A DNA stretch of 64,000 nt from the NCBI GenBank assembly GCA_964621195.1, contig CAZULJ010000004.1, forward strand, positions 16,620-80,619, given 5' to 3'. Both the position numbers and the translations under genes were made by a program. Shown here one piece after another: positions 52,861-64,000 of the stretch. Source of the DNA: an uncultured Candidatus Saccharibacteria bacterium (lineage in GTDB: Bacteria > Patescibacteriota > Dojkabacteria > SC72). The notes beneath the pieces were generated by a model. It saw only the letters and a program-made list of their open reading frames with translations, was not told the origin of the DNA and made no database searches. Each line of letters begins with the position of its first letter. Within the stretch, counting starts at the first letter, position 1.

Positions 52861-52937
52861 GCCGAAGTAGCTCAGTTGGTCAGAGCAATTGTTTTGTAAA
52901 CAATAGGTCGAGAGTTCGAATCTCTCCTTCGGCTCCA
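52861..52937 (+). tRNA. tRNA-Thr (anticodon TGT)
   Basis: GCCGAAG-TA-GCTC AGTTGGTCA GAGC-A-ATTGT TTTGTAA ACAAT-AGGTC-GAGAG TTCGAAT CTCTC-CTTCGGC-T-CCA. Confidence 0.85.
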
Positions 52938-52941
52938 TTAA

Positions 52942-53024
52942 GCAGAGGTGGCGGAGTGGTCAAACGCATCGGACTGTAAATCCGACTCCTTCGGGATTCA
53001 CTGGTTCAAATCCAGTCCTCTGCA
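52942..53024 (+). tRNA. tRNA-Tyr (anticodon GTA), long variable arm
   Basis: GCAGAGG...GGACTGTAAATCC (anticodon GTA). Variable hairpin. T arm CTGG TTCAAAT CCAG. CCTCTGC-A. Confidence 0.85.
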
Positions 53025-53090
53025 TTCCCCCTATTGTCTTTTTTAATCCTTGATATATACTTTGTATATATAACTTTTGTATATCCTTCC

Positions 53091-53825
53091 ATGAGCGAAA
53101 TGATAGGAATAATAGTATTTGCAATTGGAGCAATAATTCCAATAGCCGCAGTAGGTTTAGTTGTATATTTCATCGTTCAGGCAGCAAAAAGCAAAGATGG
53201 AAAGGATATCAAACTCAAAGTATCAGCAAAAACACTTTTCCCAGTATATCTTTATATAATCTCATTCTTAACACTTGGAATTGCATTGATCGGAGCCTCT
53301 ACAGCGATAAGAGCTGGTCTCTCTTTCCAGTTTGGAGTTCCATTTGCATATACTCTCTACCAAGGAAACAACTTTGAAGAGGCAAAGATGTATGACCCAG
53401 GTCTTCAAAGAGATGATTACGAAGTTTGCTATGAAGGGGAACCAATAACGATAGGAGAGAACGAATACTGTGTAAACAACCAGCAGCAGACAACGGATCT
53501 TGTTAATGGAATAACTATTTTCATTTCAATGGTAATACTTTTTGCAGTACATCAGTTTGCACTAAGCAGAATACAAATGAAGGACAGATTAGAATGGTTA
53601 AACAAATTCTATACATTTGCTTCCTTAATCCTGTATAGCCTAATTGGGTTAATATCTATCCCAACCTCTATTTACCAACTAACCAACTATCTAATAACCA
53701 ACCCAGAAAGCTACGCATACTCTACACCAGAGGCTCCGGCAATGGCTATTGCAATAGCAATAACAAGCTTGCCTCTATGGATATACTTCCTTAATAGAAC
53801 ATCCAACTTAAGAGAAGAAGATTAG
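53091..53825 (+). CDS. Polytopic membrane protein of unknown function. The start is moved to the Met after tRNA-Tyr.
   Basis: About 6 TM helices and a conserved-looking Cys pair (YEVCYEGEP...EYCVNN) in a loop. The ORF as given in the track overlaps tRNA-Tyr, so an internal start at MSEMIG is used. Confidence 0.45.
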   Translation: MSEMIGIIVFAIGAIIPIAAVGLVVYFIVQAAKSKDGKDIKLKVSAKTLFPVYLYIISFLTLGIALIGASTAIRAGLSFQFGVPFAYTLYQGNNFEEAKMYDPGLQRDDYEVCYEGEPITIGENEYCVNNQQQTTDLVNGITIFISMVILFAVHQFALSRIQMKDRLEWLNKFYTFASLILYSLIGLISIPTSIYQLTNYLITNPESYAYSTPEAPAMAIAIAITSLPLWIYFLNRTSNLREED

Positions 53826-53866
53826 GTCTGTAAAAATTCGATAACTTTGTATATAATCAAGTCCAA

Positions 53867-53943
53867 GCTGGATTAGCTCAGTTGGTTAGAGCACATTCAT
53901 GGTAAGAATGAGGTCCTGAGTTCGACTCTCAGATCCAGCTCCA
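53867..53943 (+). tRNA. tRNA-Thr (anticodon GGT)
   Basis: GCTGGAT-TA-GCTC...CATTC ATGGTAA GAATG...CTGAG TTCGACT CTCAG-ATCCAGC-T-CCA. Confidence 0.85.
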
Positions 53944-53945
53944 TC

Positions 53946-53978
53946 TATATACTCTCTTTTCGAAGAGAGAAATATATA
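53946..53978 (+). other. Extended palindromic hairpin immediately after tRNA-Thr(GGT)
   Basis: TATATA-CTCTCTT-TTCG-AAGAGAG-aAATATATA. There is no clear U-run. It could be a processing or termination element. Confidence 0.3.
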
Positions 53979-54102
53979 AAAGCCTACGGTAATATAGGGA
54001 ATACAATTAGATTTTGACTTTAGGTTTTCGTTAATCGTATGGCATATTACTACTAACCAAAGTTATCCTCTAAATAGTAACACAAATTGAGAGTAAAAAC
54101 AT

Positions 54103-54131
54103 TTGACCTAACCTTAATATTTCAATATAAT
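54103..54131 (+). promoter_or_regulatory. Candidate sigma70 promoter for rpmG / tRNA-Trp / secE-nusG
   Basis: TTGACC-N17-TATAAT, about 50 nt upstream of the rpmG ATG. Confidence 0.45.
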
Positions 54132-54182
54132 ACTTTGTATTTCCCATAATATCCTAGTTATTAATTTTGACGCGTAAAAAAG

Positions 54183-54347
54183 ATGGCAAAAGTTAAGAGA
54201 GATATAATTGCTTTGAAGTGTACAGTATGTGATAGTAAGAACTACACCTCTTACAAAACAAAGAACATAAAAGAGAAGATTGAGAAGAACAAATATTGTC
54301 CAGTATGCCAAAAACATACTGTTCATAAGGAGACAAAAGTTAAGTAA
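54183..54347 (+). CDS. rpmG: 50S ribosomal protein L33 (zinc-ribbon type)
   Basis: The ORF track did not list it because it is under 60 aa. My translation is MAKVKRDIIALKCTVCDSKNYTSYKTKNIKEKIEKNKYCPVCQKHTVHKETKVK. Conserved position before tRNA-Trp and secE. Confidence 0.8.
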   Translation: MAKVKRDIIALKCTVCDSKNYTSYKTKNIKEKIEKNKYCPVCQKHTVHKETKVK

Positions 54348-54367
54348 TTAAGCTGTTTTACAGACAA

Positions 54368-54439
54368 GGGCCCATAGTTTCAATGGTAAAACAGTGGTCT
54401 CCAAAACCATAGTTCTCCGTTCGAGTCGGAGTGGGCCTG
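54368..54439 (+). tRNA. tRNA-Trp (anticodon CCA), CCA end not encoded
   Basis: GGGCCCA-TA-GTTT CAATGGTAA AACA...GTGGT CTCCAAA ACCAT-AGTT-CTCCG TTCGAGT CGGAG-TGGGCCT-G. Confidence 0.8.
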
Positions 54440-54450
54440 CTTGAAAGAAT

Positions 54451-56380: not shown

Positions 56381-56403
56381 TTATTAAATTCTTCGATTAC
56401 TAT

Positions 56404-56433
56404 AGACCTCCTATACAGGAGGTCTTTTTCTTT
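56404..56433 (+). terminator. Hairpin plus U-run after rplA (terminator/attenuator)
   Basis: AGACCTCC-TATACA-GGAGGTCT followed by TTTTTCTTT. Confidence 0.5.
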
Positions 56434-56573
56434 ACCAAATGATTTGAGACTCTAAATATCATTTACCAGAGCGGGTTTTTAATATATAATTCTCACCAGC
56501 AAACCAACTATGGGCAAATAGCCCACGTCGCTCTGTAACAATTGTTCTTGACTCAAGACAAGGAGATTTTAGA

Positions 56574-56858
56574 ATGGCAACCAAAACCGACAACAAATGC
56601 AAAGGCTGCGATCGCTCAGGTGAAGAGTGCTTGGGGTGTACATCCGATTTAGATGCATCCGAGCTTCTCGAAATATTCCTCGGGGAAAAAAGTGAGGAAG
56701 AGCAGATTCAATTTTTCGTAGAAATACTTAAAGTTGGACCTCAAGATGCAGCAGATTTGCTGACATCCTTCCTCGGAAAAAGAACCGAAAGTGAGCAAGT
56801 TGAATTCTTCGAGCGATTGCTAGAGAAGGAGGGGTTAGGACCAATCGATATCGAATAG
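56574..56858 (+). CDS. Small acidic Cys-motif protein with an internal tandem repeat, inserted between rplA and rplJ
   Basis: AAGGAG SD 8 nt before the ATG. 94 aa. CKGC-x7-CLGC. Two roughly 29-aa repeats, ELLEIFLGEKSEEEQIQFFVEILK and DLLTSFLGKRTESEQVEFFERLLEK, with conservative substitutions. Local GC is above the window average. Confidence 0.4.
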   Translation: MATKTDNKCKGCDRSGEECLGCTSDLDASELLEIFLGEKSEEEQIQFFVEILKVGPQDAADLLTSFLGKRTESEQVEFFERLLEKEGLGPIDIE

Positions 56859-56898
56859 CTTTACTGGTACACGTCGACTGGTTGGTTCTGCTAAAAGC

Positions 56899-56952
56899 AA
56901 GAGAGGACGGTAGATTGCAATCTACAACTAGCATCATATGCCGTCCTCTCTT
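56899..56952 (+). promoter_or_regulatory. 12-bp perfect-stem hairpin with a roughly 30-nt loop in the rplJ upstream region
   Basis: The arms AAGAGAGGACGG and CCGTCCTCTCTT flank a loop containing the 16-nt palindrome GTAGATTGCAATCTAC. Confidence 0.4.
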
Positions 56953-56980
56953 GACTGAACCATTGCCAATCATATATAAT
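56951..56980 (+). promoter_or_regulatory. Candidate sigma70 promoter for rplJ-rplL
   Basis: TTGACT-N18-TATAAT. The -35 overlaps the 3' arm of the hairpin. About 95 nt upstream of the rplJ ATG. Confidence 0.4.
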
Positions 56981-57073
56981 CCCCTTAGTAATTATCCTAA
57001 GAAACATGGTACAAAAATAAATCCATGCGAGGAAACTGATAATTCAAAAATATTAATTAATTAAGTACATACG

Positions 57074-57595
57074 ATGTCTAAAAGTCGTACTCAAAAGGAA
57101 GAGCTACTTAAAAAGTATAAAGATTTGATTGAATCAAAAGCTGGATACCTTTTAGTTAACTCAGATAAGATTGACACTGCAACAGTAACAGGTCTTAAAA
57201 TCCAATTAAAGGATGTAGATGCAAACTTTACAGTTGTCAAAAACAGTATCTTTAAGGTTGCACTTCAAGATACAGATCAACCATTACAAGTACAGGAATT
57301 TGAAGGTCCAACAGCTATTATTGCATTTGAACAAGATCCGACAGCACCAGCAAAATTAGTAAAAAAGATGCAAAAAGAAACTGAACTATTGGAACCAAGA
57401 AGTGGTGTATACGAGGGAGAGTTCTTAAGCGCAGAGAGAGTAATGCAGTTAGCAGATATCCCATCAAAGGAAGTCTTGCTATCAAGATTAGTAGGAACTA
57501 TGAATGCTCCTTTAACTGGCTTTATGAATGCAGTTACTGGCAATGTAAGAGGTTTAACAGTAGTACTTAAAGGTATTGCTGAGAGTAAATCTTAA
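57074..57595 (+). CDS. rplJ: 50S ribosomal protein L10
   Basis: 173 aa. LVNSDKIDTATVTGLKIQLKD... Confidence 0.9.
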   Translation: MSKSRTQKEELLKKYKDLIESKAGYLLVNSDKIDTATVTGLKIQLKDVDANFTVVKNSIFKVALQDTDQPLQVQEFEGPTAIIAFEQDPTAPAKLVKKMQKETELLEPRSGVYEGEFLSAERVMQLADIPSKEVLLSRLVGTMNAPLTGFMNAVTGNVRGLTVVLKGIAESKS

Positions 57596-57631
57596 TATAT
57601 AGTTATATTTTAATTTATTTTATTTACCTAA

Positions 57632-58036
57632 ATGTCAGACGAAGCAAAAACTCTTCCAACATTAACAGAGAATGCACAGAAAGTAATCGAAATGGTTGAG
57701 AAAATGACCGTTTTAGAACTTGCAGACCTTGTTAAGGTTATGGAAGACAAATTCGGAGTAAGTGCTGCAGCTCCAGTAGCAGTAGCAGCAGCTCCAGCAG
57801 AGGCTGCACCTGCAGAAGAAGAGAAATCTTCATTCAATATTGTTCTTAAAGAAGCAGGAGCAAACAAGATCGGAGTAATCAAAGTAGTAAGAGAGATTAC
57901 AGAGCTTGGATTAAAAGAAGCAAAGGATCTTGTAGAGGCTGCACCACAGACAGTAAAAGAGTCTGTAAAGAAAGAGGATGCAGAAGCTATCAAAGCAAAG
58001 TTCGAAGAGGCTGGTGCAACTGTAGAGTTAGCATAA
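57632..58036 (+). CDS. rplL: 50S ribosomal protein L7/L12
   Basis: Ala/Glu-rich hinge. C-terminal domain [24 protein letters not shown]...[14 protein letters not shown]. Confidence 0.9.
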
Positions 58037-58058
58037 TAGCTTACCTAGATATAGAATT

Positions 58059-58088
58059 AAGAGGTCTTGAAAAAGACCTCTTTTTTTT
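58059..58088 (+). terminator. Strong rho-independent terminator after rplL
   Basis: AAGAGGTCTT-GAAA-AAGACCTCTT followed by TTTTTTTT. Confidence 0.75.
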
Positions 58089-58167
58089 CCCACGGCTATA
58101 TTCGACAATGAATACCAAGACAAAGTATAATGTGGCGGATATATTCTAATTTTTCAGAATATTAAAA

Positions 58168-58833
58168 ATGTTTGATACAACAAGCTTAACACAGTGGGTT
58201 TTAGATCATGGAGTCCCCCCTACTGCATTAGAGCTACTAATGGCAATTTCTGTATTAGCGACTGTGGTAAGTATCGCAAGATATGTCATAGGTTCAAAAA
58301 CATATGGCATATATGCACCAATACTTCTCGCAATCGCATATTCATATACAGGGTTAAAATACGGACTTTCAGTAACACTACTAGTCATTCTTACCTCTTT
58401 AATCTCCTACAGCATACTTAAAAAGATTAGAATGCACTACTTAACTAGAATCGCTACCAACTACACGATACTCTCAATGTTACTAATCCTCTTCTTTGTA
58501 TTAATAGATCGATTTGGACTAGGATTGGACAATATGCATAATATTCCCCCTCTCGCATTCATATCAATAGCTGCACTCTCTGACTTCTTTATCAAACAGT
58601 ATGTAAAGAAATCACTTGAAGGATCTTTACTCACACTCTTTGGAACAATAACTGTTGCAATAGTTGGTTGGTTTGTAATATCTAGAGAAATAATCTCGGA
58701 ATATTTGATCCTAAATCTATGGATACTACCCGTACTAACAATCGTAAATATCCTACTAGGACAATTTACAGGGTTAAGAATCAGAGACTATTTCAGATTT
58801 AGACTAAGCAACAAAGATGACTCTAGCAATTAA
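58168..58833 (+). CDS. Seven-TM integral membrane protein, first gene of the ATP-grasp operon
   Basis: 221 aa. I count seven hydrophobic helices of about 20 aa each. Cytoplasmic basic tail RIRDYFRFRLSNK. The stop overlaps the next gene. Confidence 0.55.
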   Translation: MFDTTSLTQWVLDHGVPPTALELLMAISVLATVVSIARYVIGSKTYGIYAPILLAIAYSYTGLKYGLSVTLLVILTSLISYSILKKIRMHYLTRIATNYTILSMLLILFFVLIDRFGLGLDNMHNIPPLAFISIAALSDFFIKQYVKKSLEGSLLTLFGTITVAIVGWFVISREIISEYLILNLWILPVLTIVNILLGQFTGLRIRDYFRFRLSNKDDSSN

Positions 58834-60295
58834 CAATAGGTATAGCCAAATATTAGGCTTAAACCGAAGGAATCAAGAGTATGTGAGACCATACAATCCT
58901 CCTTCTGCCAAAGCTATTGCTGACAATAAAATACTAACAAAGAGAGTCCTAAAGAAAGAGTTAATACAAACACCGGAGGTCTACAAACTTGTAAGAACCA
59001 AAAAGCAATTACAATTTTTAGATTGGGATAGCTTACCAAAAAGCTTTGTTATAAAGCCCAACAAAGGAACAGGTGGAAATGGAATAATCGTATTCTACGG
59101 AAAGAAAAAAGGACAAGATGCATGGATAAGACCAAATGGATCAGTTATGACAAAGAGAGATATAATTCTTCATATAGAAAATATACTAGAGGGTAGATTC
59201 TCGATGGGTTCTCGTAACGACATTGCTATCATAGAGGAAAGAATTAAGACAGATTCCCTACTAAAGCAGTACTCATACAAAGGCGTTCCAGATATTAGAA
59301 TAATCTGCTTCAACGAGGTTCCCGTAATGGCTATGCTAAGATTACCAACTAAAAGATCTAATGGTACTGCAAATCTGCACTCGGGCGCAATATGTACAGG
59401 TATAGACTTAGAATCAGGTATTACGACCTACTCTATGCATATGAAGGCCTCTGCCTTTAGAACAGATTCCTACAAGCTTGTAGACTCAACCTTAGATCTT
59501 CAAGAGAATAAACCTCTAAGTGGTATTCAAATACCGTACTGGAACGAGATGTTAGAAATCGCACTTAAATGCCAGAAAGCAAGTAAACTCGGATACCTTG
59601 GTGTAGACATCGCAATAGATGCAGAAAAGGGCCCTGTTGTATTTGAAATAAATGCTAGACCAGGCCTCGGAATACAAGTAGCGAACCAAGCTGGTCTTAG
59701 ATGGAGGTTAGAGAAAGTAAAGGACCTGAATATAAAGAGTATAAAACATGGGATTAGAGTCGCAAAGAATCTCTTCGGAGGAGAAATTGAGGAAAATATT
59801 GAAGCTATCAGTGGTAGAAAGGTACTCAACATAGTTGAAAAAGTTACCCTCTTTAACAAAGGGACCGAGATAAGCAAGATTAAGAAGGCAAAGAAAATGC
59901 AAAAGGAAATAGTAAAGGCCTTCATGGACACCGGGATACTGACATCCAGAATCTCTTCCATACTTGCAAACAGGATAGGTTTTCTAAAAGCTGGGAAAGA
60001 TTTTGAGTCTTTAGATGTACCAAAAAGATTTGGAAGTTTCAAAGAAGCACAGGACTACATGGATAAGTATGAAAAGGATATCTGTACACGATACCCTGAT
60101 ATAAAAAGACTTGCTAAGATCTTAGAAGATGGAGAAATAAAAATAAGACCAGTATTTGAGATACCCATTAAAATATCTGACTCTATAAAAATAACAGAGT
60201 TTGTATCTACAGATTCCAAAGAAAATCTCTACCCAGTTGTCATAGGTAGGGCTGAACTATCCGGTTTCCTTATCGATACAAGTAATACATTCTAA
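58817..60295 (+). CDS. ATP-grasp amidoligase, RimK-related / sugar-transfer-associated ATP-grasp-like, with about 170-aa C-terminal extension
   Basis: FVIKPNKGTGGNGIIVF (ATP-grasp B-loop region)...LGYLGVDIAIDAEKGPVVFEINARPGL (C-terminal Mg/ATP motif). 492 aa. Confidence 0.6.
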   Translation: MTLAINNRYSQILGLNRRNQEYVRPYNPPSAKAIADNKILTKRVLKKELIQTPEVYKLVRTKKQLQFLDWDSLPKSFVIKPNKGTGGNGIIVFYGKKKGQDAWIRPNGSVMTKRDIILHIENILEGRFSMGSRNDIAIIEERIKTDSLLKQYSYKGVPDIRIICFNEVPVMAMLRLPTKRSNGTANLHSGAICTGIDLESGITTYSMHMKASAFRTDSYKLVDSTLDLQENKPLSGIQIPYWNEMLEIALKCQKASKLGYLGVDIAIDAEKGPVVFEINARPGLGIQVANQAGLRWRLEKVKDLNIKSIKHGIRVAKNLFGGEIEENIEAISGRKVLNIVEKVTLFNKGTEISKIKKAKKMQKEIVKAFMDTGILTSRISSILANRIGFLKAGKDFESLDVPKRFGSFKEAQDYMDKYEKDICTRYPDIKRLAKILEDGEIKIRPVFEIPIKISDSIKITEFVSTDSKENLYPVVIGRAELSGFLIDTSNTF

Positions 60296-60314
60296 AATAT
60301 TTCTCAAAGAAACT

Positions 60315-61292
60315 ATGAAAACATACGAAGAATATTTACAAGAAGCAGGTAATGTACATCTAGCCTACTACGTTGAAGCTGCAGATACGCTGGGCATAAA
60401 GTATGAGATCGTAAAAAGATCCCTTCTAGCAAAATTTTCAAACGATACGAAACATTGGTTCATAATTAATACTGCTACACCTCTTACCAATACAACAAGT
60501 ACTACAATTGCTAAGAGAAAAAACCTAACAAACGAGATCCTGTACAAGGCTGGGATACCAGTACCAAGGCAAGTTGTTTTAAGAAATAAAAATGAAGCTA
60601 TAAAGTTTTTTGAAGAGTACAAAACCATAGTCATCAAACCCTCTCAACAATTGGGAGGGAATGGTGTGACCTTACTACCAAAAGATAAAGGACAGGTAAT
60701 AAAGGCATTTAAAAGTGCAGATAAGTCTTCAAAGGCAAAAGATGAGAACAGAGTAATTGGAGAAGAATTCATAGAAGGAGAAAACTACAGATTCCTAGTA
60801 GTAGGAGATTCTGTTGTAGGCATTGTGAGAAGAAAGGCAGCTTTTGTGGTTGGAGATGGAAATAACAGTATTAAAAAATTAATAGAGGAGAAAAACAGAG
60901 AGAGAAAGAGTAACCTACTTAAGCCAATCCCTATAGATACTGAAGTTAAATTAAGATTAGAGAATCTTAAAATAAATCTCAATACCGTGCCAAGTGAAGG
61001 CGAAGAAGTTATACTTAGATACAACTGTAACCTAAGTACTGGTGGTACAACACAGGAGTGTTCATCCCAAGTACATGAATACTACAAAGAGATTGCCGTC
61101 AGTGCTGTGAAAGCAATTGGAACAGTATTTGGGGGAGTCGATATAATTACTCCAGATATTACACAACCTGCAAAATGCGGAGTAAATGAAATAAACTACA
61201 ATCCAGGTCTAAGACTACACTACAAAGTAGATGAAGGAGAGGCAGTAAAGGTTGCAATACCAATAATGGAATATATATCAAAAAATATTTAA
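60315..61292 (+). CDS. ATP-grasp ligase, cyanophycin-synthetase-like
   Basis: IVIKPSQQLGGNGV...ENYRFLVVGDSVVGIVRRKAAFVVGDGNNSIKKLIEEKN...NLSTGGT...GVDIITPDI...VNEINYNPGL parallels the CphA ATP-grasp domain. Confidence 0.6.
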   Translation: MKTYEEYLQEAGNVHLAYYVEAADTLGIKYEIVKRSLLAKFSNDTKHWFIINTATPLTNTTSTTIAKRKNLTNEILYKAGIPVPRQVVLRNKNEAIKFFEEYKTIVIKPSQQLGGNGVTLLPKDKGQVIKAFKSADKSSKAKDENRVIGEEFIEGENYRFLVVGDSVVGIVRRKAAFVVGDGNNSIKKLIEEKNRERKSNLLKPIPIDTEVKLRLENLKINLNTVPSEGEEVILRYNCNLSTGGTTQECSSQVHEYYKEIAVSAVKAIGTVFGGVDIITPDITQPAKCGVNEINYNPGLRLHYKVDEGEAVKVAIPIMEYISKNI

Positions 61293-61309
61293 TCTTTTTC
61301 TAAAACAAA

Positions 61310-63007
61310 ATGTTTAAAACATTACAAGGTTTAAATCTAGAGTCCCAGTATACAACTGTAAAAATATCATTAGAAGGATCAAATATTGGAGAGATAACAA
61401 AACTTCTTGATCAAATAAGTTCCTTCCACCCTATCTTTCTCTATGAATATATCCTCTCTCCGAAGGAACTTTCAATACGTTCAAAATTACCTGAAATATG
61501 GAGAGAAGCTGCTAATACACTCAACCAACTCTCAAAAGAGGAAATAAAATATGAAGATGCTCATGATATTCTGGTCAATACAATCATCTCAAAGAGGGTT
61601 AAATCAATGTCTACCATACCAATACTACACGCTGCTCACCAAAAGAATATCGAAACGAACTTAGCAGTATTGAGCAAATCAATAGTAGATGGATACGATT
61701 TAGGATACAACAGTACATTTAATAGATACTATGTACTTGGGTGTGGTAAGGGTTCCTCAGTTACCGTTTCAGTAGGATCATCAAAAGATTCAACCTACGG
61801 ATTTAAGATCCAAAGAGATAAATGGACAACAAACAGAATAATAGATAGATTGTGTCTGCCACTTCCTAAGTGGGAAGTAATAAATTCAGAAGAACATCTA
61901 GAGAAAGTTTGGGATAACTATGCAAAACCTTTAGTAATCAAGCCAACAGGTTTAACAGGAGGAAAAGGAGTAAGTGTAGGAATTAAAACACTTGAAGAAG
62001 CAAAGATGGCATTCAAAAGGGCAAAGAAAGATACAGATAGTAAGATAAGATCTCCCTGGCAAACAAAGATAATGATCCAAGAGCAAGTAAAAGGAGAAGA
62101 CTATCGACTACTCGTTGTAAATGGAAAGCTTGAGATTGCCACTAAAAGAATCCCTGCGTTTGTTGAAGGTGATGGAAAAAAGACTATCGAAAAATTAATA
62201 GAGGAAACAAACAAAGATCCAAGAAGGGATATAAAAAATCCGACCCATATACTAAAGCCAATAATCATAGATGAGCCACTTCTCGAACTACTAGAAAAGA
62301 ATGGCTTAACTCTTAAATCTATTCCAGAAAAAGGTTCAAGAGTATATGTAAGAAACATTGCAAGCATGAGCCAAGGAGGTATAACAGAGGACTTTACTGA
62401 TGAGGTAAGTAAAGAAATTAAACTTCTAGTTGAAAGTATTGCACAATCAATACATGCATTCACACTAGGTGTTGATGTGATTTGCCAAGATATTACTAAA
62501 CCATTAACCAAGGAGAATGGTGCTATCTTAGAAATTAACACAATGCCCGAAGCATACCTGAATTTCTTTCCAGTAATTGGTAAACAAAGAGGATACGTTG
62601 CAGATACTTTTGTAGAGGGCTTACTCTCTGAGAATAAGTGTAAAAAGATAGTTGTTGTAGGACAAAGCATTAGCGATATCCCTACGAACTTAAGAAGATG
62701 GTGGAAGATTAAGAACGAAGATACTGTAGGAGAAATTGTAGAAGATCGTTACTACATAAACGGTATGCAAATAAATGAAGATCTAGAAAGAATACAGGCA
62801 TTTGAAGCTATAAAATGTAATGCTTCACTAGATGTAATAATTCTCCATCATAGAGACTGGAATGATGTTGCCGAATTTGGACTAGGATTTGATCATATAG
62901 ATACCCTTCTCATAACCAAAGAAGAGGCAAAGGACAGAGAAAAAGTAAAATTGATGAAGAAGTATAGAGGTATGAAATTAATAAATAAAATAGAGATAAT
63001 CTCCTAA
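61310..63007 (+). CDS. ATP-grasp ligase, cyanophycin-synthetase N-terminal-like. The C-terminal region lacks a Mur-ligase P-loop.
   Basis: LVIKPTGLTGGKGVSVG...EDYRLLVVNGKLEIATKRIPAFVEGDGKKTIEKLIEETNKDPRRD...SMSQGGIT...GVDVICQDI...ILEINTMPEAY. 565 aa. Confidence 0.65.
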   Translation: MFKTLQGLNLESQYTTVKISLEGSNIGEITKLLDQISSFHPIFLYEYILSPKELSIRSKLPEIWREAANTLNQLSKEEIKYEDAHDILVNTIISKRVKSMSTIPILHAAHQKNIETNLAVLSKSIVDGYDLGYNSTFNRYYVLGCGKGSSVTVSVGSSKDSTYGFKIQRDKWTTNRIIDRLCLPLPKWEVINSEEHLEKVWDNYAKPLVIKPTGLTGGKGVSVGIKTLEEAKMAFKRAKKDTDSKIRSPWQTKIMIQEQVKGEDYRLLVVNGKLEIATKRIPAFVEGDGKKTIEKLIEETNKDPRRDIKNPTHILKPIIIDEPLLELLEKNGLTLKSIPEKGSRVYVRNIASMSQGGITEDFTDEVSKEIKLLVESIAQSIHAFTLGVDVICQDITKPLTKENGAILEINTMPEAYLNFFPVIGKQRGYVADTFVEGLLSENKCKKIVVVGQSISDIPTNLRRWWKIKNEDTVGEIVEDRYYINGMQINEDLERIQAFEAIKCNASLDVIILHHRDWNDVAEFGLGFDHIDTLLITKEEAKDREKVKLMKKYRGMKLINKIEIIS

Positions 63008-63008
63008 C

Positions 63009-63962
63009 ATGAAATATTTAATAATTGATAAAAGACAGAGGGTTGAAACCGGGAATGAGGATAAAATTGCAACTGCCAACTTAAGAATAATTGAAGAATT
63101 GGACAAGAAAGATATACCCTACTCTCTTGTATACAATGATGAAATAGAGTTTCAAATAATCGATAGTGAAACATCGATATTTGTAAAAGGCGAAGATATA
63201 CGAGAATATACTCATATACTGTTTAGAGGACATGCTTTACATAACGAAATTGAGTATCAATATAAAAGATATATCATCGATTACATAGATCAATATAACC
63301 TAAAAAATCCAAAAGAAAGGATATTAATACAAAATAGCGAAGCAATAAAAACCCTTCCATATTACAATAAAATAGCACTCGGTTTGTTCTGTTCTCAAAA
63401 TGACATCCCCTACTTCAATACCTATTACAGAACAGACGGCAACTATATTGCACACAGAACGACCCTAGAGACATACCCCGTCATAATGAAAGAGTATTCC
63501 GGGGCAAATAGAGTTGAAATTATTGATGGAAAAGAAAAAATTAAAAAGAATGTATTTAAGATAACTCACGAAGATGATTACAGGCAGGAAGGATTACAAG
63601 GCCAGGACCACTCTAGGTTCTTTATACAGGAGTTCTCGGATAGTGGTATGGATATCAGAATATTCGTAAAATTGGGCAAGGTAATTGCTGGATGGAAGAG
63701 GAAAGCGACCGAAGGTTTCATGACCGTAAAGGACGGAGAATACTCCATGTACAACAACCCAGAGAAGGCCGATAAAGAACTTGCAGAGAATGTTGCACAG
63801 AAACTCAATGCGGATTTTATTGCTGTAGATCTTATGTATCTCAACAACAAACCATTACTACAGGAAGTTAGTTATCATCCAGGATTTAAAGCTTACGAAA
63901 CAAAGATCGAAGGAGAACCAGTAAATATTGCAGAGGCAATTATAACTGCCTTTAAAGGATAG
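63009..63962 (+). CDS. ATP-grasp ligase, RimK/glutathione-synthetase-like
   Basis: FIQEF...GMDIRIFVKLGKVIAGWKRKATEGF...ADFIAVDLMYLNNKPLLQEVSYHPGFKAY parallels RimK (LVQEY...[25 protein letters not shown]...LDVAGVDIL...LVMEVNASPGL). Confidence 0.6.
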   Translation: MKYLIIDKRQRVETGNEDKIATANLRIIEELDKKDIPYSLVYNDEIEFQIIDSETSIFVKGEDIREYTHILFRGHALHNEIEYQYKRYIIDYIDQYNLKNPKERILIQNSEAIKTLPYYNKIALGLFCSQNDIPYFNTYYRTDGNYIAHRTTLETYPVIMKEYSGANRVEIIDGKEKIKKNVFKITHEDDYRQEGLQGQDHSRFFIQEFSDSGMDIRIFVKLGKVIAGWKRKATEGFMTVKDGEYSMYNNPEKADKELAENVAQKLNADFIAVDLMYLNNKPLLQEVSYHPGFKAYETKIEGEPVNIAEAIITAFKG

Positions 63963-64000
63963 CTAAATACCAACCTTCTTAAATACTGACTTCCAAAGTT

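Follow-up and report, generated by a model that had tools for sequence, protein, structure and literature searches.

Proteins of the 7TM_transglut family (Pfam PF14402) reportedly belong to a neighbourhood system, said to have been set out by Iyer, Abhiman, Burroughs and Aravind in 2009, in which a seven-transmembrane (7TM) protein is combined with an ATP-grasp ligase and a pepsin-like peptidase. A second arrangement of ligase and membrane protein is that of PgsB/C/A(E): a cytoplasm-facing amide ligase and small integral-membrane partners, which together produce an acidic polyamino acid and carry it out of the cell.

Experimental knowledge of the Rlo system comes from one study, on the rloABC operon of Pseudomonas aeruginosa (Lormand et al., mBio 2025; PMC12239564). 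Deletion of either rloB or rloC rescues a triple rloA protease mutant; the two genes belong to one pathway, in which they precede RloA, the periplasmic, polyglutamate-cleaving protease (PMC12239564). RloA is secreted and RloC is cytoplasmic; RloB is linked to hypo-osmotic tolerance, cell shape and antibiotic resistance, and 96% of RloB matches are found in Proteobacteria (PMC12239564). The RimK–RimB pair consists of a cytoplasmic alpha-L-glutamate ligase and a cytoplasmic PF05618 protease that trims the poly-Glu product (PMC12239564).

The 7TM gene and its family

The gene described here is carried by the genome of a member of Candidatus Dojkabacteria (CPR) and lies within a 64,000-nucleotide stretch of DNA (hereafter the window). 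The gene itself, the signals that flank it and the elements referred to below are as follows (positions in the window):

58059–58090, + strand: intrinsic-terminator-like hairpin and T-run (10-bp stem, 4-nt loop, then TTTTTTCCCA)
58102–58131, + strand: candidate sigma-70-like promoter, TCGACA–18-nt spacer–TATAAT, a consensus match only
58168–58833, + strand: 7TM gene, an ATG-initiated open reading frame of 221 aa; PF14402 member with no ectodomain
58582–58584, + strand: codon of D139 in TM5, an acidic position occupied by E or D in 146 of the 147 sequences aligned
58771–58806, + strand: GLR motif, G202-L-R-x-x-D-Y-x-R-F-R212, where TM7 reaches the predicted cytoplasmic side and the C-terminal helix begins
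58817–58833, + strand: overlap of the 7TM stop with the ATG of the next gene, AG1 (17 nt)

The list of open reading frames and the sequence agree with the initial annotation on the start, end, strand and length of the 7TM gene. It is no chance open reading frame, and it is under purifying selection, because it has 364 relatives in the database (E ≤ 1e-3), is present at 73 species-level genome loci and shows dN/dS values of 0.07–0.15 against eight relatives (dS being saturated). The 73 loci derive from a search that used a less divergent 7TM alignment as the query and returned only Dojkabacteria.

On the 5′ side, the terminator-like hairpin closes the upstream rplJ–rplL unit and parts the ribosomal-protein genes from the 7TM operon. 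The promoter candidate is located ∼37 nt 5′ of the 7TM start and matches at 11 of 12 positions; it is the best site within 57500–64000, a region in which the total of promoter-like sites is not above that of shuffled sequences. A search for a riboswitch or leader 5′ of the operon returned no Rfam match of note.

The initial annotation had likened the product to the 7TM modules that occur fused to inactive transglutaminases beside ATP-grasp genes, and the Pfam search bears this out: residues 22–212 align with positions 57–245 of the 248 in the PF14402 profile (E = 2e-17; 64 bits, gathering score 25). The same family was recognised in all of the 120 close relatives among the matches listed. The NCBIfam model for RloB (NF052267) also aligns, at positions 316–505 of 508, that is, over its 7TM part; with 32.1 bits against a cutoff of 900 the protein does not qualify, under NCBIfam rules, as an orthologue of full-length RloB. 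The inactive transglutaminase domain is absent: 17 residues precede TM1, and no transglutaminase match was found in Pfam. This does not disqualify the protein from PF14402, for which the domain is a ‘usual’ feature, not a defining one.

Nor is a standalone 7TM protein unusual. Of the 150 best cluster representatives, 55 are short standalone forms of 200–262 aa. The ‘usually fused’ of the PF14402 description leaves room for unfused members, and NCBI has a name in use for them, ‘7TM domain-containing protein’. The known spread of standalone relatives takes in Dojkabacteria and low-GC metagenomic lineages. Relatives of ∼500 aa were considered as possible transglutaminase fusions; in nine relatives, seven of them long forms (371–605 aa), Pfam returned PKD and no transglutaminase. 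The ectodomain is thus the variable part of the family – there may be none, a signal peptide followed by a low-complexity linker, or PKD – and the 7TM core is constant; the essential function would therefore be carried by the core. Judged by sequence, the protein appears to be the bare 7TM module of PF14402, corresponding in Dojkabacteria to the membrane portion of RloB. The family is already known; the protein is a minimal form of it, paired with a ligase–protease fusion.

Topology and conserved residues

Seven hydrophobic helices with almost no soluble domain had been read from the sequence in the initial annotation. The Kyte–Doolittle profile has seven peaks, and two AlphaFold2 models agree, one built on 15 sequences (pLDDT 64.8) and one on 147 (pLDDT 94.3, pTM 0.88). 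The AlphaFold2 helices comprise residues 18–41, 49–61, 63–84, 91–116, 128–147, 150–172 and 174–198, the last (TM7) being kinked at 183–185. The bundle is flanked in the model by a short N-terminal helix (4–13) and by a C-terminal amphipathic helix (205–220), and it leaves out just ∼17 residues at the N terminus and ∼22 at the C terminus. The predicted orientation is N-out/C-in, since the predicted cytoplasmic loops and tail contain 10 lysines and arginines against one in the outer loops. Relatives with an N-terminal signal peptide and an ectodomain would require the same N-out orientation.

Too few helices, or membership of a well-known transporter or permease family, would speak against a module of this kind. 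The number of helices is seven, and no transporter or permease homology was found in Pfam (E ≤ 0.1), among PDB sequences or in fold searches. Many transporters typically contain an internal inverted repeat; hhalign comparisons of TM1–3 with TM4–6 and with TM5–7, and of TM2–4 with TM5–7, detected no internal repeat (probability below 2%). Fold searches with the pLDDT 94 model found no convincing solved structural homologue, and the fold matches were not significant. A GPCR-like fold was proposed by Foldseek only for the low-confidence model (E ≥ 0.3, TM ∼0.2) and was gone with the confident one. Likeness to rhodopsin-like or 7TMR-DISM receptors was found neither in Pfam nor in the fold search with the confident model.

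Conservation across the family is concentrated in a few places. The GLR motif is the most conserved of all: in 147 diverse members G202, L203, R204, D/E207, R210 and F211 are invariant or nearly so, and together with R38, G42 and Y91 these are the top-conserved positions on the predicted cytoplasmic side. We propose that the motif may act as a docking surface. D139, T160 and N194 make up a conserved polar set that, by position along the helices, would lie in the cytoplasmic half of the bundle. Glutamates at positions 159 and 185, kept in most relatives, are Gly and Trp in Dojkabacteria.

The paired ligase and the wider locus

The 7TM gene is followed on the same strand by four genes for ATP-grasp ligases, AG1 to AG4:

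58817–60295, + strand: AG1, 492-aa RloC-like ATP-grasp ligase with a C-terminal retropepsin-like domain (PF14397, E = 3.9e-68)
58838–59725, + strand: ATP-grasp ligase domain of AG1, aa 8–303 (profile match)
59903–60292, + strand: RimB/RloA-like retropepsin domain of AG1, aa 363–492 (NF052264, RloA3, E = 1.3e-6)
59927–59935, + strand: catalytic-type D371-T-G373 motif of the retropepsin domain, invariant in 65 orthologues
60315–61292, + strand: AG2, 325-aa ligase like the ATP-grasp (G) domain of cyanophycin synthetase (TIGR02068, 3.9e-67)
61310–63007, + strand: AG3, 565-aa cyanophycin-synthetase-like ATP-grasp ligase with N- and C-terminal extensions (NF010623, 2.6e-73; TIGR02068, 9.6e-72); syntenic
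63009–63962, + strand: AG4, 317-aa RimK-family ATP-grasp ligase (PF08443, 4.5e-9; TIGR00768 and MptN, ∼1e-12); syntenic

Of particular interest is the junction between the 7TM gene and AG1. The initial annotation had reported a 17-nt overlap with a 492-aa ATP-grasp gene, and this is what the sequence contains: the ATG of the next open reading frame is at 58817, within the 7TM gene. The start is credible, as the TIGR02291 profile aligns from residue 8 and the next in-frame Met does not occur before residue 111. Among 64 Dojkabacteria loci, 63 retain an overlap of 8, 11, 14, 17 or 20 nt, with one relative frame throughout, and an overlap is also present in two distant relatives (L075 and L084). 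Translational coupling of the two genes is likely.

The pairing is not confined to close relatives. In all seven informative distant relatives (L075, L077, L078, L080, L081, L083 and L084; 25–40% identity) an ATPgrasp_ST gene is located directly 3′ of the 7TM gene, and each of the six complete ligases next to distant 7TM relatives ends in a DTG retropepsin domain. Rates of the 7TM gene covary most with those of AG1 and AG2 (partial r of 0.62 and 0.63; AG4 0.34, MATCAP 0.25; mirror-tree on 23 loci, the pairs being non-independent), which is weak support for partnership. Taken together we consider it very probable that the 7TM protein is the dedicated membrane partner, of the PF14402 family, of this ligase.

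AG1 itself belongs to the ATPgrasp_ST/RloC branch, and not to RimK proper: the ATPgrasp_ST family (PF14397) is matched with 230 bits (threshold 31.4), and only part of the ligase domain matches PF08443. TIGR02291 is by far the best-scoring family (279.6 bits, under the trusted cutoff of 314.2). The ATP-grasp motifs KPxxGxGGxGI, NLHxGA, GVDIA and EINxRPG are kept in 65 AG1 orthologues, with a mean column identity of 0.84. The C-terminal domain matches PF05618 with E = 0.025, the orthologue in L070 scores above the cutoff of that family, and phmmer aligns the domain with PDB 2pma. Both domains, ligase and protease, look catalytically intact and conserved. The retropepsin domain is predicted to be cytoplasmic because no signal peptide is present; a separate RimB-like protein in the relative L081 is also without one.

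AG2 aligns with positions 165–470 of the TIGR02068 profile, far under the equivalog cutoff, and is syntenic in nearly all Dojkabacteria loci. AG4 is the last gene inside the window; in relatives the locus continues with a convergent gene for a MATCAP-type peptidase and with an MreB paralogue. The six-gene ligase/peptidase cluster is found at one locus in nearly all of the 73 species-level, very small genomes. Retention of such a cluster in CPR genomes of this size suggests an important peptide product, possibly one tied to the envelope.

Role of the 7TM protein and comparison with known systems

The explanation that best accounts for the locus as a whole, and that we hold to be probably correct, is that the 7TM protein is the membrane subunit of a compact, two-gene, Rlo-like machine, of which AG1 is the other part. 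The bundle, oriented N-out/C-in, would hold the ligase/protease at the membrane by its conserved cytoplasmic face, formed by RYxxG after TM1, RMHY between TM3 and TM4, and GLRxxDYxRFR after TM7. The AG1 ligase would make a short peptide or peptide tag that is alpha-linked and probably acidic (Glu-rich), and the fused protease would cap its length. The bundle, with D139, T160, N194 and the broken TM7, would then take the product to or across the membrane, to an acceptor in the envelope; in Dojkabacteria AG2, AG3 and AG4 and the MATCAP-type carboxypeptidase probably lengthen and trim the same product. A physical complex between the 7TM protein and AG1, the chemistry of the product and its export are things we infer.

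That the partner's job includes translocation or hand-over of the product is a tentative part of this proposal, and one we lean slightly against. Membrane passage via RloB is the simplest model for P. aeruginosa, because the protease mutant recovers on loss of rloB or rloC, and because the polyglutamate-cleaving RloA is secreted and RloC stays in the cytoplasm. Against transport is the nature of the conserved intramembrane residues, which are acidic or polar and thus unexpected in a pore carrying a polyanionic peptide. The replaced glutamates at 159 and 185, the missing internal repeat and the TIGR02291 score under the trusted cutoff also tell against the proposal as a whole. Moreover, the CPR protease is predicted to be cytoplasmic, fused as it is to the ligase and lacking a signal peptide; the export argument from Pseudomonas is therefore not directly transferable. 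A bolder version, distinctly unlikely in our judgement, would make the 7TM_transglut bundle a membrane translocase, or hand-over device, of a structural class of its own that serves peptides made without ribosomes. In Dojkabacteria it would be the exit point of a phylum-wide line (four ATP-grasp ligases, the fused retropepsin and the MATCAP-type carboxypeptidase) that builds a polymer of amino acids, or a decoration of peptides, for the CPR envelope.

It is possible to read the same protein as a sensor: a receptor-like 7TM switch through which a signal from the membrane or the envelope (such as osmotic or turgor stress, the state of the lipids or an envelope ligand) would turn the ligase/protease on or off, with no carriage of product. 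A variable ectodomain on a 7TM core is the typical architecture of bacterial 7TM receptors (cf. 7TMR-DISM), and the present family, with none, a linker, PKD or an inactive transglutaminase on a constant core, fits that description. The cytoplasmic face, from which a signal would be relayed, is the most strongly conserved; with a protease that stays in the cytoplasm, as predicted for CPR, export would not be needed; and the Rlo phenotypes of P. aeruginosa are stress-related, notably hypo-osmotic (PMC12239564). However, the Dojkabacteria form, with no ectodomain and short outer loops, is left with little but the bilayer to sense, receptor 7TM families are without a Pfam match, and the GPCR matches vanish once the model is good. 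Loss of rloB mimics loss of rloC in P. aeruginosa, as expected of an activator and equally of an indispensable co-factor, so that the genetics do not tell the two apart. A sensor is unlikely, although it carries some weight. A passive anchor, which merely tethers the ligase/protease close to a substrate at the membrane, for example a lipid-linked cell-wall precursor, and has no pore, sensing or catalysis, is improbable. The conserved C-terminal cytoplasmic helix and the loops would suit docking, in L083 the pair sits directly 5′ of three Mur-ligase genes, and rlo mutants of P. aeruginosa have cell-shape and beta-lactam phenotypes (PMC12239564). Yet seven helices, with an invariant acidic residue buried among them, a Thr and an Asn that are conserved and a break in TM7, far exceed what an anchor needs: one TM helix fused to the ligase would suffice, and no such fusion is found among the 150 best relatives.

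Two further readings attract very little of our confidence. RimK extends the C-terminal Glu of ribosomal protein S6, and the 7TM protein could likewise be the substrate of the ligases, with amino acids added to its C-terminal tail and the retropepsin and MATCAP cutting it back. In favour are the acidic character of the tail (…KDDSSN, …REDGNK, …KEDDK), its cytoplasmic position and the presence at one locus of ligases and two kinds of peptidase, a layout of writers and erasers; but the last residue is variable (mostly K, at 52 of 72 loci, with N, A, Q, R and others at the rest) and almost never Glu, and in more distant relatives the tails vary freely, so that a role as acceptor is highly improbable. 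Neighbouring proteins fare no better in this respect, as L7/L12, AG2–4, MATCAP and MreB2 have no conserved terminal Glu or acidic C-terminus. Equally hard to credit is a small secondary transporter that supplies an auxotrophic CPR cell with an amino acid, for example glutamate, for its four ligases: transporter-family homology, significant fold matches and an internal repeat are all wanting, it would be unusual for a nutrient importer to be tied so strictly, one to one and with overlapping genes, to a single ligase family in lineages far apart, and RloB is still needed in P. aeruginosa despite its many glutamate transporters.

If the membrane-subunit reading holds, the CPR version is the Rlo system cut to its core: a bare 7TM bundle and one ligase–protease polypeptide. 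Several leads follow. The conserved partner of the ligase would be the 7TM bundle, and not the transglutaminase-like ectodomain; the protease can be other than extracytoplasmic; and the residues invariant throughout the family (D/E139, T160, N194 and GLR…RFR) offer a mutagenesis list for Pseudomonas, where such work is tractable. The compact 7TM/AG1 pair is also convenient for co-expression and cryo-EM.

The locus compares with described systems as follows. With PgsB/C/A(E) the likeness is a functional analogy only: no sequence or fold relationship was found, and the PgsB enzyme is of the Mur-ligase type, outside the ATP-grasp group. RimK and RimB are two separate soluble proteins with a known target, S6, and no membrane partner, whereas AG1 joins both domains in one chain. 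As for the PF14402 neighbourhood system, the Dojkabacteria 7TM protein passes the HMM threshold and has the expected neighbours, but is an unfused minimal form, and the peptidase is fused to the ligase instead of being encoded by a separate gene. With the Rlo system it shares a homologous 7TM module, the same inferred orientation, a neighbouring RloC-type ligase (ATPgrasp_ST/TIGR02291) and a PF05618 retropepsin. In contrast to RloB (∼508 aa, with an inactive-transglutaminase ectodomain), the Dojkabacteria protein has 221 aa and lacks that domain; the protease, secreted as RloA in P. aeruginosa, is here fused to the ligase, without a signal peptide and predicted to be cytoplasmic; and the locus, in a CPR host, has three extra ligases and a MATCAP-type peptidase. 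There are also close metagenomic relatives that do carry an ectodomain, either as PKD–7TM proteins of ∼505–540 aa or as forms of ∼270–335 aa with a signal peptide and low-complexity linker: their 7TM core is 25–30% identical, has the same motifs and is followed by the same downstream ligase–retropepsin gene.

Organization of the 7TM–ligase locus

The gene for the 7TM protein lies downstream of secE, nusG, rplK, rplA, rplJ and rplL, in a window of 36.9% G+C, and is the first of five same-strand genes, followed by the ATP-grasp ligase genes AG1, AG2, AG3 and AG4.

Features of the 7TM–ligase run
58059-58082: terminator-like hairpin with a T-run, between rplL and the 7TM gene
58102-58131: good sigma-70-like promoter match, between the hairpin and the 7TM gene
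58168-58833, + strand: 7TM gene, ATG start, 221 aa
58817-60295, same strand: AG1, 492 aa; PF14397 ATPgrasp_ST (3.9e-68), TIGR02291 (279.6 bits)
After AG1, same strand: AG2, 325 aa; like the ATP-grasp domain of cyanophycin synthetase
61310-63007, + strand: AG3, 565 aa; like the ATP-grasp domain of cyanophycin synthetase
Ending at 63962, same strand: AG4, 317 aa; RimK family

Those relatives that carry names are Candidatus Dojkabacteria (candidate division WS6, a CPR lineage). Across 74 loci searched with tblastn, almost every sufficiently long one has the order rplJ-rplL, 7TM-AG1-AG2-AG3-AG4 and then, convergently and in relatives just past the point where the window ends, a PF08014 (MATCAP) metallopeptidase gene and a second mreB paralogue, mreB2. 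In a divergent locus (L070, 43% identity) the 7TM-AG1 pair is intact and the other ligases are displaced. The last two genes, found after the four-ligase run in nearly all Dojkabacteria loci, are exemplified by L001:15786-16952 (-) and L001:16970-17986 (-); the PF08014 protein belongs to the MATCAP, or tubulin tyrosine carboxypeptidase, family and has the HExxH motif. Within the cluster AG3 evolves fastest (mean distance 0.63): its N- and C-terminal extensions (residues ~1-140 and ~450-565) have no Pfam assignment, and its NF010623 alignment continues to CphA position 577.

Dojkabacteria and no fewer than three lineages further removed (L075, L078 and L084; 7TM identity 33-40%) have the 7TM-ligase pair right after rplJ-rplL; in other relatives it is found after ruvC (L077, L081) or in other places. 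The adjacency may have been inherited as synteny or may mark a functional tie to the operon of the ribosomal stalk; in the window, the spacer at 58037-58167 places a terminator between rplJ-rplL and the pair. Further upstream, the unusually long rplA-rplJ spacer (56381-57073) gave no match to the Rfam L10-leader and contains a 94-aa ORF (56574-56858, +) that is very acidic, with an N-terminal CxxC…CxxC motif and the ending …IDIE. With tblastn matches of variable length in only 4 of 74 loci, it could encode a small protein that evolves quickly, or be no gene at all. Four tRNA genes (Thr-TGT, Tyr-GTA, Thr-GGT and Trp-CCA, the last directly before secE) occupy 52861-54440, around the gene of a 263-aa membrane protein (53034-53825) that matches DUF5671 below threshold; as listed, from a TTG start, this ORF perhaps begins too far upstream, its L001 orthologue having 237 aa.

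The 7TM protein and its family

The 7TM gene is genuine and evolves under purifying selection, with dN/dS of 0.07-0.15 against eight relatives (dS is saturated). A clustered protein database holds 364 relatives at E≤1e-3, the best 120 of which are all 194-223 aa long and 64-100% identical. The seven hydrophobic helices of the initial annotation are borne out by seven peaks in a 19-residue Kyte-Doolittle scan and by AlphaFold2. From 15 close homologues the model was modest (pLDDT 64.8); from 147 diverse family members it was confident (pLDDT 94.3, pTM 0.88), with transmembrane helices at 18-41, 49-61, 63-84, 91-116, 128-147, 150-172 and 174-198 (with a break at 183-185 in the seventh), plus further helices at the N-terminus (short, 4-13) and the C-terminus (amphipathic, 205-220). 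Lysine and arginine number 10 in the predicted cytoplasmic loops and tail versus one in the outer loops, giving an N-out/C-in topology; the same topology is required by those relatives in which a signal peptide and ectodomain come ahead of the same 7TM core.

The suggested kinship to 7-TM modules fused to inactive transglutaminases also holds. The protein scores 64 bits against PF14402 (gathering score 25), described as ‘7 transmembrane helices usually fused to an inactive transglutaminase’, and the sole other Pfam match by hmmscan at E≤0.1 is noise. It aligns to positions 316-505 of the 508 in the NCBIfam RloB model, but at 32 bits versus a cutoff of 900, and is therefore a member of the PF14402 family rather than an RloB orthologue. 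HMMER, run exhaustively over 1.84 billion cluster representatives, returned 992 clusters at E≤1e-3.

Lengths of the best 150 representatives of the 992 clusters
<200 aa, fragments: 10
200-262 aa, standalone: 55
263-340 aa, most with a signal-peptide-like hydrophobic start followed by a low-complexity linker: 26
341-480 aa: 8
>480 aa: 51

Long close relatives contain PKD domains by Pfam, which detected no transglutaminase domain in any of the seven long forms examined; together with the length classes, this indicates a variable ectodomain on a constant 7TM core. In place of the transglutaminase-like domain behind the family name, the closest long relatives (L081:4112-5734 and L082:5001-6536; proteins P0141, P0145, P0152 and P0173) have an N-terminal PKD domain and ~200 unassigned residues.

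Among the 147 sequences G42, P51, G62, G66, T160, G198, G202, L203, R204, R210 and F211 are invariant or nearly so. Per-class counts show an essentially invariant acidic residue at 139 (TM5) and further conservation of N194 (TM7), D/E207, R38 and Y91. From where they fall along the helices, R38/G42, R88-Y91 and 202-212 lie on the cytoplasmic face, with D139, T160 and N194 in the cytoplasmic half of the bundle. Glutamate is common in relatives at positions 159 and 185, where Dojkabacteria have glycine and tryptophan respectively. A search of the 7TM core revealed no internal repeat, PDB sequences gave no match to the family profile, and fold matches of the model to known structures were taken as non-significant; the fold is one without a convincing solved representative.

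Conserved pairing with a ligase-retropepsin fusion

The 17-nt overlap reported between the 7TM stop and the start of the 492-aa ATP-grasp gene is exact (ATG at 58817, 7TM end at 58833). Where both genes are complete, the stop overlaps the AG1 ATG by 8-20 nt in 63 of 64 Dojkabacteria loci, always in one relative frame. The ATP-grasp motifs and D371-T-G373 of AG1 are invariant in 65 orthologues; its C-terminal domain matches the retropepsin RloA3 (1.3e-6) and, weakly, PF05618, and can be aligned to the PF05618 structure 2pma.

Eight distant relatives (25-40% identity) were sampled, seven of them on informative contigs. In all seven an ATPgrasp_ST ligase gene comes directly after the 7TM gene, and each of the six complete ligases ends in a retropepsin-like domain with DTG, so what recurs is the 7TM protein together with a ligase-retropepsin fusion. 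One distant locus (L081) additionally encodes a RimB-like protein on its own, which lacks a signal peptide. MATCAP and the three additional ligases extend the recurring pair in a lineage-specific manner, being present in Dojkabacteria and in L084 (33% identity). Rates of 7TM evolution covary most with AG1 and AG2 (partial r ~0.62-0.63), which is weak evidence.

The family, its ATP-grasp and pepsin-like neighbourhood and its unfused members are already in Pfam/NCBI annotation. In the literature searched we found no description of the ectodomain-less form, of the ligase-retropepsin fusion being the norm in these lineages, of its protease lying in the cytoplasm, of conservation in nearly every recovered Dojkabacteria locus, or of the extension to a six-gene ligase/peptidase cluster.

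Possible function and relation to known systems

The sole experimental work on the PF14402 family is that of Lormand et al. 2025 (PMC12239564). P. aeruginosa secretes its RloA-type retropepsins, which cut polyglutamate; a strain lacking all three dies under hypo-osmotic conditions, has defects of cell shape and is sensitive to antibiotics, and it is rescued by deleting either rloB, whose product joins the 7TM module to an inactive transglutaminase, or rloC, which encodes a cytoplasmic ATP-grasp protein (PMC12239564). The rescue implies that RloB and RloC generate something that a periplasmic protease must remove, so that membrane passage or hand-over by RloB is the simplest model; the authors leave this role open (PMC12239564).

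In a mechanism proposed from these genetics together with the sequence and locus data, the Dojkabacteria 7TM protein would be the minimal membrane subunit whose conserved cytoplasmic face docks the ligase/protease. The ligase would make a short, probably acidic peptide, the fused protease would trim it, and the 7TM bundle would hand the product to or across the membrane. Against this mechanism, the conserved residues inside the bundle are acidic, an unexpected feature if the cargo is anionic, and the bundle is without a structural analogue; moreover, since the protease of the Dojkabacteria variant is cytoplasmic, the case for export drawn from Pseudomonas does not apply to it. The 7TM protein might instead be a sensor or regulator, a passive anchor or an importer. 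That it is itself the acceptor of the modification is disfavored, because it has no conserved C-terminal residue.

ATP-grasp ligases and a MATCAP-type peptidase beside a cytoskeletal gene are reminiscent of the eukaryotic tubulin-tail ligase/peptidase pairing, against which stands an MreB2 C-terminus that is neither acidic nor conserved. In one distant relative (L083:5001-10678; P0138, 225 aa) the 7TM and ligase pair is immediately followed by three Mur-ligase genes, which may point to a connection with the synthesis of peptidoglycan peptide stems and agrees with the cell-shape and beta-lactam phenotypes seen in rlo mutants of Pseudomonas.
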